Positions 35,577 through 40,508 are shown, numbered from the stretch's first letter. The stretch is DNA of 64,000 bases from Alphaproteobacteria bacterium (GCA_023898725.1 CP060236.1:672852-736851); one strand, 5' to 3'. Numbers and translations: made by a program. The notes: generated from the letters alone by a model not told the origin.

Positions 35577-36623
35577 TTAGGATATATCTCTTTCTACATC
35601 ATTAGCGGCGATGTCTCTTGATATTCTTGGAGATTTGGGTTTACCAGCTGTTTCTTGCGCATCACCAGAATCCTCTACATGAAGGCGTGCCAACATGCGT
35701 GCGGTGAAAAACCCTACTCGGAAGAGTGAATTTCTTGAAGCGGGTGAGGAATCTATCCCCATTTCTTCATCCGTCGTGGTTTGTGTATCGATGGATCTGG
35801 ATATGATGGGCGGACTATCTTTTGGTGCGCCGTAATTGGTGCCGGGTGTTGCCTTTTTAGCGGGCATCTCGTGAAGCGCGTGCGAATCCCCTGAGAGTTG
35901 TAGGGAGGTGTGCTCGCTCCCTCTTCTGTGCATGTGGGGAAATCCCTCGTGTCTATGGGATAAATGCCCCCGAGATGTGGTGCGTGAAACACGAAAAATG
36001 AAGGGATCCTGTTCGCCTGTACGCGGACTAACACCTGTATAAATAAAGGCATAAAGGACATTACTTCCTCCTTCCTCCCGCACGCGGAGATTAATCCACC
36101 CGTGATGGCGTGCTTCATTAATAGATGTAAAAAAATCAGCATCTAAGCGCCCTGTTTGGCGCGCCGCTCCTTGTATCTCCCGAAAAGTTGCGGCTAAGAT
36201 ATCAGGTGGCCCAGGGGGGTCTGAGGGGTCGGGGTCTTCGCTTGCGCGAAACCAACGCATGGTATACTCATAATCCCTTGTGCGAAAAGAGAGCCCATCC
36301 CCAAGCACTTCTTTGTTGCTATCGGGACACATGCCTTCTAGTTTATTGGCAGCGTTATTCAGGAGTTGCATCATAAAACGAGGCATTGTGTCTGGATAAA
36401 ACTCAGTGAGACGATTGTTTTCATAGGGATCTCGTTTCCAGCAACAAGACAATGATCGGCACCGCTCTCGTGCTTGATTGGGGTTTGACCATATAGATCC
36501 TGCAAGTGCAACGCCCCCTGAAACAAGTGTGCCGACAGTAGTGAAGGCAAGAGCTTCCCAACCTGATGCCTTAATCGGACAAAAAAATAAATAACAAATC
36601 AATAGTGATATTTTTTTGTTCAT
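35577..36623 (-). CDS. Hypothetical exported protein (Cys- and His-rich, no recognisable domain)
   Basis: 348 aa; signal peptide MNKKISLLICYLFFCPIKASG. CRSLSCCW and HRHEGFPHMHRRGSEH patches. Driven from a 309-nt extremely AT-rich divergent region. Confidence 0.45.
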   Translation of the reverse strand: MNKKISLLICYLFFCPIKASGWEALAFTTVGTLVSGGVALAGSIWSNPNQARERCRSLSCCWKRDPYENNRLTEFYPDTMPRFMMQLLNNAANKLEGMCPDSNKEVLGDGLSFRTRDYEYTMRWFRASEDPDPSDPPGPPDILAATFREIQGAARQTGRLDADFFTSINEARHHGWINLRVREEGGSNVLYAFIYTGVSPRTGEQDPFIFRVSRTTSRGHLSHRHEGFPHMHRRGSEHTSLQLSGDSHALHEMPAKKATPGTNYGAPKDSPPIISRSIDTQTTTDEEMGIDSSPASRNSLFRVGFFTARMLARLHVEDSGDAQETAGKPKSPRISRDIAANDVERDIS

Positions 36624-36932
36624 AGAATGTATTAAAATTAATATTATAATATTATATGTAATTATGTATAATAAATAGCTAATAAAAAATTAAAAAACCA
36701 CCTCACGTATGTCTGTTTGTCACAAAAGAGATGATTTTTTGTGATGCTTCTGTGCAACAAAGAAAAAAAGTGTTTTTTCTACGAGTTTTTTGTCACTCGT
36801 TCCTGTGTCATAAAAAAAATAAATGTGTCAAAAATTTTCATAATCAAGCCTGATTATCGAAGCCCCATTGTGTGTACCGTAATTTCACGCACAATAGGGA
36901 AGTGTAAATTTATTTTTTAACGGAGATTATTA
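36624..36932. promoter_or_regulatory. Extremely AT-rich divergent intergenic region (likely divergent promoters)
   Basis: About 80% A+T with runs such as ttaatattataatattatatgtaattatgtataataaatagctaataaaaaattaaaaaa. Lies between divergently oriented exported-protein genes. Confidence 0.35.
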
Positions 36933-37649
36933 ATGAAAAAAATTCTGACACTTTTGGCTGTAGCAACAGCCGTTACGACAGGGTCTTCTGCGGCTATGAC
37001 GGGTAAATTTTATGGTGGTCTTGGGCTGGGCATGAAAAAAGTCCATGCGGAAATGGGAGGATATACGGCCTCTTTGGGCGGTAGAGCAAGCAACTCTGAT
37101 ATTTATGACGTGACTTCAGACAAATTTGCTGGCCAAGTGTTTCTTGGTTATCGTCTGGGTGTTTCTGAGATGTTTTATGCGGGATTGGAGATTGATGCTA
37201 ACTCTCCTTATACGTATAAGAATGAAGCGGATCCTGAGGTAAAACGCAACAACACAGAGTTTAATGAACCTAAAATTAAAACTGGGTTGGGATTTGGCGC
37301 CAGTCTTTTGCTTGGTTGGAACGTGAACGAGTCATCATCTCTCTTCATCCGTCTTGGCGGTGAGTACCGTAAGCATCAGATTAGTCCTAATTTAGGTAGT
37401 GCTTTTAATGGTTTAACTCATCAACAACGTACAGCCAAACGCAGCTACACAGATTTTTCCTTTGTTCCTGGCGTAGGGGGCACAATGAAAATGAACGATA
37501 CCCTAGAACTTAGTCTCGATTACCGCGTTAATATTGGTAATGGCAAAAAGTTTGGTACCAATAGTACAACTGACTTTACAACAAAGCATACGGATAAATC
37601 CCACACAATGATGGCTCGTATCTCTTATTGCTTTAAGAAACTTGGTTAA
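36933..37649 (+). CDS. Outer-membrane beta-barrel protein (Omp25/Omp31/Hbp-like)
   Basis: 238 aa; signal peptide; GKFYGGLGLG start of the barrel; alternating aromatic strands; C-terminal aromatic-rich strand. Confidence 0.6.
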   Translation: MKKILTLLAVATAVTTGSSAAMTGKFYGGLGLGMKKVHAEMGGYTASLGGRASNSDIYDVTSDKFAGQVFLGYRLGVSEMFYAGLEIDANSPYTYKNEADPEVKRNNTEFNEPKIKTGLGFGASLLLGWNVNESSSLFIRLGGEYRKHQISPNLGSAFNGLTHQQRTAKRSYTDFSFVPGVGGTMKMNDTLELSLDYRVNIGNGKKFGTNSTTDFTTKHTDKSHTMMARISYCFKKLG

Positions 37650-37703
37650 CTATTTGTTAATATATGGGGTTTATTATATTTCTTGTAATAAACTCCTAAC
37701 CCT

Positions 37704-38454: not shown

Positions 38455-38487
38455 AAAACCATCTCCTCAGGGAGGTGGTTTTTTTTG
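38455..38487 (+). terminator. Rho-independent terminator
   Basis: aaaaaaaccatctcc-tcag-ggaggtggtttttttt: 10-bp stem with one G-U pair and a 9-T tail. Confidence 0.75.
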
Positions 38488-38571
38488 TAAGAATAATATT
38501 GGTACGTATATCTGTAGGGTGCATAGTTTTTATGCTAGAATATTTTATATTTTTTTAGGGGCGCAATAAAA

Positions 38572-39675
38572 ATGAAACATCTCGATAAATTTTTCCTACT
38601 TTTTTTTCTTGGTTCCATGCATGCTACACACAATCTCTATGCAGAAGAACCACTTGAGGAGGTTGCGGTTGAAGCCAGATCTGAGAATCTGGAAGACAGC
38701 TCTAAGCAAGAGATAGCCGAATCGTCGCTTGATGAGGATACACCCCTCCCTCCATCCGTTGATGCTGCAGAACCTGTCCGTGAAGAAAAAGCCCAAGGGA
38801 ACTCTCAAAAAACACCTAAACCTCAAGGAAAAAAGAAACAATCTCCGTTTAAGGGTCACAAACCTTTTTGGAAAACAAGTCGCAAAAACACCTATGTTTT
38901 AAACAAGAACAATGAATTTGATTCTGTTGAATCGGTTGTGCTCTCAAAAGAATATAGGACAACAGCCGGACGTGTACTGATTGCGAATGCTAAGAAATTC
39001 ACCAGTTACGTCACACTTTTTAAATCTCCTGGGGGAAAATGCTATAGTATTGTTCAGCCCACGGAGATTGCTGGGATAAAACCTGGGTATTCGCTACCCT
39101 TACTAGCGGCCTATCAACATGAGAAACGACTCTTGCTCGACTTAACTGCTTTCAAGGATGTCCTAAAAGGTCAAGGTTGCCGGAAATGGAAGAAAATCAA
39201 TGAGGTTGCAATTCTTTTTCCCGTACATCAAACCGCAACCGATGCAAAACCCCATTATCCGTTGTGGATTTCTAAGGGGGGGAGAACCTTTGTGTCCGAT
39301 AAAAAACAAGATCTTAATCTTAAAGAAGTAACAACAAAAACTGATATGTACAAAGTTCCAGGTCTCTATCGACTGACCTACCAAGGAAAGGCCCATATTG
39401 CTACGACACTTCTAAAGAATTTTCAGAATACGAAACTATCTGAGGATCGATCTGTTTTTAAGGATGACGAGGGTAATTGTTCTGTAGCCGATGGCATCGT
39501 GAAGAATGCTGTGCCCGGTTTTTCTTATTCAGGCGCGCCGTTGATCCAGAAGGTCCGTAAGAACCCGGGGCCCGTTGTGCGCGATTTAGATGGTGAGGAT
39601 TGGATAGCACCATTTGATTGTAAAAACCTCAAAGAAGTAGAGATTTTAGCAATTGTATACGGATACCCAGAATGA
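38572..39675 (+). CDS. Hypothetical exported protein, paralog A of a two-member family
   Basis: 367 aa; signal peptide. Shares the blocks F(K/R)S..G.CY…P.E…K.G.Y and H(Y)P.W(I/V)S with the next gene. The degenerate GFSYSGAPL resembles a serine-protease GDSGGPL box. Confidence 0.5.
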   Translation: MKHLDKFFLLFFLGSMHATHNLYAEEPLEEVAVEARSENLEDSSKQEIAESSLDEDTPLPPSVDAAEPVREEKAQGNSQKTPKPQGKKKQSPFKGHKPFWKTSRKNTYVLNKNNEFDSVESVVLSKEYRTTAGRVLIANAKKFTSYVTLFKSPGGKCYSIVQPTEIAGIKPGYSLPLLAAYQHEKRLLLDLTAFKDVLKGQGCRKWKKINEVAILFPVHQTATDAKPHYPLWISKGGRTFVSDKKQDLNLKEVTTKTDMYKVPGLYRLTYQGKAHIATTLLKNFQNTKLSEDRSVFKDDEGNCSVADGIVKNAVPGFSYSGAPLIQKVRKNPGPVVRDLDGEDWIAPFDCKNLKEVEILAIVYGYPE

Positions 39676-40508
39676 TAATCCCTGTTTTTTTAACGCATTT
39701 TTTCTATGGGATCATCAGTATTTTTTGCCTTATTCCCAGTCTTTATGCGGCAGAAAATGTATCTGCGGCTGGGCCTGAGAAGCTTTATACAACACCAGAT
39801 ACGAAAGAAAGCGACCAGCCTGCAGAAGAGTCTGTTTCCACCGAAACTGTTTCTGTGCGTTCCCCCATAAAACAATTAGAAGAGGAAACAGAAAAGAAGG
39901 ATCACAGTGCTCCTTCTGCCTCACAAGAGTTCAAACCTTTGTGGCTAAGGTCTGGGAGTTATTTCCAGGGTAAAAAACAGCGTGATGAAGTACCGTCAGT
40001 CATGGAAATCCATGATAATACTCTGTCATCATGGGTTCAGTGGATGCAAAAAGCTATTTATGTGACCTACAAAGAACAAACTGTCGTGACCCGTACAAAA
40101 AGTGGTGAAAGCAAAACAACGATGGGGCTTGGTTTTTTTCGCAGCCAAAATGGCACTTGTTATGTTACCCCTGTAGAACCACAAGCCCTAAAGCTAGGGA
40201 CATACTATATGGTGGTCCCTAGCGTCGAAGAGGTGCTTGATAAAACCAAAGGACAAAAAACTATCCGTCGCCAACGCCAGAGTTTTACCAAGCACCCCTG
40301 GGTTAGTGATCTCAAGTGCGCAAACGATAATAGTATGTTAGTTGCAATTGGGGCCTTTGATTTGCAATCCCAACACATGCAAGAACCTGATGACGATACA
40401 AAGAAACGAGTTGAGGAGTCTGACAAAAAAAGGGACATACTCTGTCAAGATAAAAAGAGTAAAACCTCATCCCTATCCGAGAAGAAGCCAGAATCTCCTT
40501 CCGCATAA
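39672..40508 (+). CDS. Hypothetical exported protein, paralog B
   Basis: 278 aa; start overlaps the stop of paralog A by 4 nt; signal peptide. Shares conserved blocks with paralog A (GTCYVTPVEPQALKLGTYY, HPWVSD). Charged K/D/E-rich tail. Confidence 0.5.
   Translation: MIIPVFLTHFFYGIISIFCLIPSLYAAENVSAAGPEKLYTTPDTKESDQPAEESVSTETVSVRSPIKQLEEETEKKDHSAPSASQEFKPLWLRSGSYFQGKKQRDEVPSVMEIHDNTLSSWVQWMQKAIYVTYKEQTVVTRTKSGESKTTMGLGFFRSQNGTCYVTPVEPQALKLGTYYMVVPSVEEVLDKTKGQKTIRRQRQSFTKHPWVSDLKCANDNSMLVAIGAFDLQSQHMQEPDDDTKKRVEESDKKRDILCQDKKSKTSSLSEKKPESPSA

Follow-up and report, generated by a model that had tools for sequence, protein, structure and literature searches.

In bacteria with reduced genomes, tandem duplication of small exported protein families is a general pattern, and a further described system of exported envelope proteins is the PF13505 (OMP_b-brl) family of beta-barrels, which includes Omp25/Omp31 of Brucella, Hbp of Bartonella and RopB of Rhizobium. 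Here we describe a cluster of five open reading frames (ORFs), named P1 to P5, at positions 35577-40508 of a stretch of 64,000 nucleotides (the window, 64 kb) from the metagenome-assembled genome (MAG) Alphaproteobacteria bacterium (GCA_023898725.1, CP060236.1:672852-736851), whose contig has 1,107,460 bp. The five ORFs lie between addA and accD, exactly at the coordinates given in an earlier reading of this DNA from the sequence alone (hereafter the sequence-only reading), and both flanking genes were confirmed by NCBIfam (AddA by TIGR02784 at 2.3e-261, AccD by TIGR00515 at 4.5e-109). In that reading the block was an island of exported proteins, with an architecture typical of surface or host-interaction loci in host-associated Rhizobiales. 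Our results lead to a different picture, in which the block is no acquired island but probably a set of cell-envelope genes that is specific to its lineage, a small-genome alphaproteobacterium, and has been passed on vertically.

The two relatives come from Logan assemblies, a close one (R1, contigs L001/L002; runs SRR14234113 and SRR28385526) and a distant one (R2, contigs L003/L004; runs ERR9698319 and ERR9903352). In R1, of which AccD, Ugd, the epimerase and AtpA are 82%, 78%, 77% and 82% identical to the proteins of the window, the order is the C-terminus of a protein at the P3 position, a terminator hairpin, P4, P5, accD, ugd, the epimerase gene, atpH and atpA, and the homologues of P4 (47-52% identical; P0006, 52%) and P5 (43%) stand at the equivalent positions. 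In R2, with identities of 35% for AddA, 44% for PriA and 24% for AddB, the order is tal, priA, tsaE, addB, addA, the P1 homologue on the opposite strand, the spacer, the barrel gene and a gene at the P3 position; the P2 homologue here (P0007, 37-39% identical) is again found at the equivalent position. Both junctions of the cluster, addA/P1 in R2 and P5/accD in R1, are thereby seen to be conserved, and since the relatives that were found have these genes in the corresponding places, the idea of an island is not supported.

An origin by horizontal transfer, as a genomic island that entered between addA and accD, would agree with the orphan families, with the core-gene flanks and with a GC content of the block slightly below that of the window (42.9% vs 45.4%). 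Such an origin is very improbable, considering that a close and a distant relative share the genes at the same junctions and that the composition of the genes is ordinary: the codon-usage scores of all five are within 2 standard deviations of the 50 other ORFs of the window, and the GC content at third codon positions (GC3) of P1, P2, P4 and P5 is within 2 standard deviations of the other genes too. P3 lies outside this range, its skewed GC2/GC3 (z = +3.2/-3.1) being due to its Ala repeat. Moreover, none of the five proteins has an integrase-like domain, no direct repeats flank the cluster, the only tRNA of the window (at 21133) is not near, and no match to plasmids was obtained by DNA or protein search. 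It is on account of synteny, ordinary codon usage and the lack of flanking repeats, nearby tRNA and plasmid similarity that we regard the block as inherited, not inserted. The sequence-only reading had also named what would speak against it, namely the same five genes at this place in all relatives with assigned housekeeping functions; the presence is what we observe, an assigned housekeeping function is not. As for the Rhizobiales, NCBI places the MAG in the class Alphaproteobacteria only, and membership of that order is not supported.

The same comparison bears on another explanation, namely that the cluster is a host-interaction locus, whose surface adhesins or secreted factors, displayed on the outer membrane or released across it, contact a eukaryotic host and evolve fast under host pressure. 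The type of the low-complexity linker repeat differs by genome (AKE, SGST or PA), as if it were replaced wholesale with its position kept, all of the families are orphans, and P4 and P5, at 43-52% identity to R1, diverge more than most of their neighbours, AccD, Ugd, the epimerase and AtpA being at 77-82%; the single contig of 1.107 Mb would by inference suggest a reduced, possibly host-dependent genome. However, the fast divergence is unspecific, for the adjacent AtpH is only 30% identical in R1, and in R2 the divergence of P1 and P2 is about equal to that of AddA and AddB. There is furthermore no sign of a host, the Pfam and NCBIfam scans gave no adhesin, autotransporter, secretion-system or effector domain, and orphan proteins with an exported look are common across the window. 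The fast evolution is suggestive of envelope exposure without being specific to it. Altogether a host-interaction locus seems unlikely, though it is the most serious of the alternatives, and it drew no support from anything tested; a role at the surface or the host interface may still apply.

In the reading we prefer, the proteins of the cluster are predicted to be exported. As had been claimed, all five proteins appear to carry signal peptides: their N-termini pass our export test, which is an in-house hydropathy measure plus the -3/-1 rule, with predicted cuts (marked by a slash) at IKA/SG for P1, SAA/M for P2, ASA/TA for P3, LYA/EE for P4 and LYA/AE for P5, and the homologues pass as well (VRA/TG, AMA/NN, STA/EEE and IRA/EED). 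A lipobox is not indicated, since there is no Cys at any plausible cleavage site in the five proteins. Likewise the absence of a recognisable enzymatic domain was borne out for all five by the Pfam and NCBIfam scans, in which P1, P3, P4 and P5 have no match reaching a curated cut-off. Of the possible roles, a structural one in the envelope or at an interface seems to us likelier than catalysis.

The two downstream genes share a module. In P4 (38572-39675, plus strand, 367 aa, USO01101.1) the signal peptide and an acidic low-complexity linker precede two Cys-pair modules of ~135 aa in tandem (a at 38857-39252, b at 39253-39672), and in P5 (39672-40508, plus strand, 278 aa, USO01102.1) the signal peptide and an acidic linker precede one such module (39930-40379), which is followed by a Lys/Asp/Ser-rich tail. 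The module has an x-P-x-W start, then F-x-x-x-x-G-x-C, a Gly, and the second Cys about 47 residues on; in an alignment of six module copies the residues P, F, G, C, G and C are invariant. The earlier description of two paralogous exported proteins holds for P4 and P5 at the profile level only, direct BLASTP giving E = 0.016. In a database of 653 ORFs, the hidden Markov model (HMM) of P4b finds the P5 of R1 at E = 3.7e-9 across the full module (HMM positions 3-133), and the HMM of P5 finds the P4 of R1 at E = 3.4e-6. By hhalign, P4b and P5 are related with P = 1.2e-5 over 129 columns (probability 81%), and P4a and P4b more weakly, with P = 1.2e-3 over 114 columns (probability 20%), P4a being a candidate copy of the module. 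The HMM of all modules also finds the C-terminus of P3, at E = 1.5e-4. Here hhalign aligns no more than 36 columns (P = 8.3e-5), and what this C-terminus has in common with the modules of P4 and P5 is only the F..G.C..G core motif. Judged from these alignments, the simplest history of the module would be a serial tandem duplication of one exported-module gene.

We propose the ~135-aa Cys-pair module, present apparently twice in P4 and once in P5, as one not described before, for which no curated family was matched. Neither P4 nor P5 has a credible match in Pfam or NCBIfam, and a PDB search with the P4 profile, taken to E = 10, was empty. When the single modules and the proteins of the relatives were scanned against Pfam with the same limit, nothing appeared apart from a sub-threshold match of the P3 C-terminus to DUF6152 (19.8 bits, cut-off 27), a family matched by no other module copy. 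With HMMER, the two-module P4 profile found no true relative beyond P4's own cluster among 1.84 billion representative proteins; P0008 and P0009 were considered as P4 relatives and rejected as spurious, since both are repeat proteins that reach their scores by adding up many short repeated matches, 15 and 6 respectively. A bolder proposal would be that the module, in P4 and P5 and conceivably in P3 too, forms binding domains that belong to a new fold family and are displayed on the cell surface, set off from the cell on variable low-complexity stalks and anchored via the co-transcribed barrel. These domains would gain diversity through tandem duplication, make contact with a eukaryotic host, and be specific to a deep uncultured lineage of small-genome alphaproteobacteria; we hold this to be rather doubtful.

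Upstream of this module pair stands the barrel gene. P2 (36933-37649, plus strand, 238 aa, USO01099.1) is by its sequence profile an outer-membrane beta-barrel of PF13505, with 36.6 bits against a gathering threshold of 28.7 (E = 6.6e-9, profile positions 2-158 of 175), and it also matches PF01389 (OmpA_membrane) at 2.9e-6; its homologue in R2 scores 28.0 bits against PF13505, slightly below the threshold. The assignment as an Omp25/Hbp-like barrel is accordingly right at the level of the Pfam family, and does not extend to any specific subfamily. A heuristic read gives a signal-peptide-like N-terminus, MKKILTLLAVATAVTTGSSAA/M, and a Y-x-F motif near the C-terminus, where ISYCF is followed by KKLG and where the R2 homologue ends in LGYKFGI. 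The codon-usage score of P2 (z = +1.8) is the highest among the five genes, and a profile search of the PDB (E up to 1) gave no sequence relative. Another barrel is seen in a third group of exported proteins at 2609-6278 (plus strand), which comprises a DUF2066 protein, a 468-aa orphan and this second barrel; it has 27.2 bits against PF13505 (threshold 28.7) and no BLASTP similarity to P2.

On the other side of the spacer, P1 (35577-36623, minus strand, 348 aa, USO01098.1) has a signal-peptide-like N-terminus and, at residues 24-44, a segment rich in Gly, Ala and Thr. Its core is conserved as far as about residue 215, in contrast to the His/Ser/Arg-rich tail, which the R2 homologue does not share. 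Calling it Cys/His-rich was an overstatement, as the mature protein has 1.2% Cys and 3.3% His, and 8 of its 11 His are within one 41-residue tract of the tail that the homologue has not kept. P1 found nothing in a word-indexed search of 5.8 billion proteins and nothing credible in Pfam or NCBIfam, its PDB profile search was empty at E up to 10, and its codon-usage score (z = -1.2) is the lowest of the five. From the empty word-indexed search and the low score one might suppose that some of the ORFs, chiefly P1, are chance ORFs or decaying pseudogenes. This is extremely improbable: a P1 homologue with a conserved core occurs in R2 (L003 8800-9696) at the matching position and strand (28% identity over 225 aa, tblastn 1.1e-18), the annotated frame of P1 outscores the other two in codon usage, and P2, P4 and P5 have intact homologues. 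The R2 homologue was located via synteny only, the word-indexed search having missed it. We also observed that the final ~10 residues of P1 (339-348) realign with the C-terminus of this homologue (A-A-x-x-x-E-x-D) beyond the non-conserved low-complexity tails, which, in two sequences only, may be a short functional motif or an alignment artefact.

Between the barrel and the module genes, P3 (37704-38432, plus strand, 242 aa; 238 aa from the NCBI start at 37716, USO01100.1) begins with a signal peptide, continues with an Ala-rich tract and ends in a domain of ~130 aa that contains two Cys (38031-38429). The tract is encoded by a repeat of 39 nt in 3.6 copies (37890-38031), by which the description as an Ala/Lys/Glu repeat protein is confirmed. 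Its counterpart in R1 has SGST repeats together with the motif FF..G.KCY...GTYDLAI as in P3, and the one in R2 combines a signal peptide with a Cys-rich segment and with repeated Pro-Ala. Residues 34-118 of P3 match the TolA model TIGR02794 (profile positions 157-242) with 37.3 bits and E = 1.8e-9; P3 as a TolA was rejected, because the match is below the cut-off of 59.45 and confined to the repeat region. An antisense ORF of 194 aa (37646-38230, minus strand) overlaps P3, with an Ala/Phe/Ser-rich translation; it was rejected as a gene, being the mirror image of the Ala-codon repeat of P3.

The arrangement of the five genes, which in GenBank are the locus tags H6849_03275 to H6849_03295 (proteins USO01098-USO01102), is tight at both ends, with 21 nt from addA to the end of P1 and 12 nt from P5 to the end of accD. 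Between P3 and P4 lies an intrinsic terminator (38452-38485, plus strand) with an A-tract, an 8-bp G+C-rich stem and a U-tract; the strong terminator of the sequence-only reading is therefore real, with a hairpin of -23.2 kcal/mol (z = -5.4), which was detected by folding, a consensus terminator scan having overlooked it. An equivalent hairpin is found 3' of the P3-position gene in R1. P4 and P5 overlap by 4 nt, the stop of the one and the start of the other sharing ATGA, and this suggests translational coupling. In view of the divergent spacer, the terminator and the ATGA overlap, the likely transcription units are P1, P2-P3 and P4-P5, with the terminator between the last two.

The divergent spacer between P1 and P2 (36624-36932) has the 309 nt that had been reported, and its AT content is 72.8% instead of the supposed ~80%; the equivalent spacer in R2 has 304 nt and 35% GC, as against 48.6% for its contig. 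The two spacers are unalignable outside one block, TCACGCACAAT at 36885-36895 in the window, which is also present upstream of the R2 barrel gene. In the form TC(A/T)CGCACAAT the block is common to the window and R2 (L003 about 9950), at ~45 nt 5' of the barrel ATG. The window copy of the block is one arm of a 13-nt inverted repeat (36863-36899). Conserved in this way, the block may be a regulatory site.

Against an inherited envelope cluster several points have to be set. The contigs of R1 and R2 end within the repeats at the P3 position, so that each covers half of the cluster and the full set of five genes is seen in neither relative. The protein at this position in R1 barely resembles P3 (BLASTP E = 0.19), and the link between P3 and the module is at motif level only. 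The export rule is crude, having also flagged Ugd, the epimerase, AtpD and a FAD-type protein, i.e., four false positives. Both structure models by AlphaFold2 are of low confidence, with a predicted local distance difference test score of 49.9 for the module (from a six-row alignment) and of 45.4 for the P1 core (from a single sequence). Finally, residues 24-44 of P1 form a second, weakly hydrophobic segment (position-independent sum on the Hessa scale +2.9 kcal/mol; for the homologue of R2, +5.2), which could be a membrane anchor and would then alter the topology of P1.

Some observations stand beside these points. The contig ends concerned are L001 1-418, with the SGST repeat of R1, and L003 10711-11004, with a Pro-Ala repeat of 6/12/18 nt in R2. 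Foldseek searches of the module and P1 core models against the PDB gave nothing at E <= 0.001, and the lists obtained are regarded as meaningless. P1 as a two-helix membrane hairpin was set aside, its hydrophobicity being marginal.

It is also necessary to see the cluster in the context of the window. Under our rule about one third of the 55 ORFs of the window look exported, allowing for false positives, and five consecutive signal-peptide-like ORFs without Pfam match form a second run at 14862-18781 (minus strand); for these two reasons a run of five exported-like ORFs is unexceptional here. The proteins of the second run have 147, 244, 361, 224 and 299 aa and are highly charged and coiled-coil-like, and the last two have a weak common Cys-containing motif (BLASTP 1e-3). 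This run is directly downstream of a membrane and coiled-coil protein of the OmpA family (18893-19927, minus strand; PF00691, 8e-15), and from its sequence features it may be a further lineage-specific envelope cluster. Apart from these runs, a small protein at 21294-21779 (plus strand), whose signal-peptide-like N-terminus contains GGC, matches the glycine zipper of 17-kDa-antigen type (PF05433, 1.5e-6), and a 172-aa exported-looking orphan without Pfam match is at 25287-25805 (plus strand). At 57853-59478 (plus strand) a DsbD-like protein-disulfide reductase gene is found, with six predicted membrane segments and a match to NF001419 (1.2e-24) below the cut-off, which fits periplasmic disulfide handling in an organism with many exported Cys-pair proteins.

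Taking the envelope cluster as our preferred reading, a working scheme can be proposed. The five proteins would be exported via Sec by their N-terminal signal peptides, and the Bam machinery would insert P2 in the outer membrane. The Cys pairs of the modules would be oxidised in the periplasm, for which the DsbD-like gene of the window may be relevant. P3, P4 and P5 would be periplasmic or surface-exposed components of the envelope with their linkers as spacers, and P3 would be a possible partner of the co-transcribed barrel P2.

The lineage to which the cluster belongs is poorly sampled. In word-indexed homologue searches a single relative came up for P4 and another for P2. At 90% identity not only P1 to P5 but also the neighbouring conserved proteins that were looked up, namely AccD, the alpha and beta subunits of ATP synthase, YidC, Ugd and the epimerase, are singleton clusters. 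Profile searches of genome contigs with the P4 alignment and with the barrel alignment gave no relatives, and a scan of metagenomes with the back-translated pattern IRLGGEYRK gave four loci, none of them encoding a relative. A literature search by the sample accessions and the locus-tag prefix gave no papers. The value of the result is modest, and it has no bearing on any long-standing open question. It consists in replacing the island reading by that of an envelope cluster which is conserved and specific to its lineage, in defining a tandem-duplicated exported module, so far uncharacterised, in which a Cys pair is conserved, and in drawing attention to the large share of a tiny genome given to orphan exported proteins in this lineage. 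If the lineage is one of symbionts or parasites, P1 to P5 would be sensible first candidates for studies of the envelope or the host interface.

To sum up, the cluster can be compared with three described systems. With the OMP_b-brl family, P2 has in common a score above the Pfam threshold and about 217 mature residues, and a heuristic read adds a putative signal peptide and the Y-x-F near the C-terminus; it differs in having no specific subfamily, the only match in NCBIfam, of 18 bits, being to the Rickettsia adhesin Adr, for which the cut-off is 210. With domain II of TolA, P3 has in common a repetitive Ala/Lys/Glu-rich region, which in TolA is at the centre, and by analogy a long helical spacer is a plausible physical property of both. 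Where TolA has an N-terminal membrane anchor, P3 starts with what looks like a cleavable signal peptide; the C-terminal domains of the two are unrelated, and the relatives of P3 have SGST or PA repeats in place of the AKE tract. With the tandemly duplicated small exported families of reduced-genome bacteria the likeness is in adjacent paralogues, each of which combines a putative signal peptide, a low-complexity linker that varies and a small domain with a predicted disulfide, and in a divergence above that of most neighbours; the difference is that the ~135-aa module matches no curated family. Seen against these systems, the cluster is a new yet ordinary example of lineage-specific exported hypothetical proteins.

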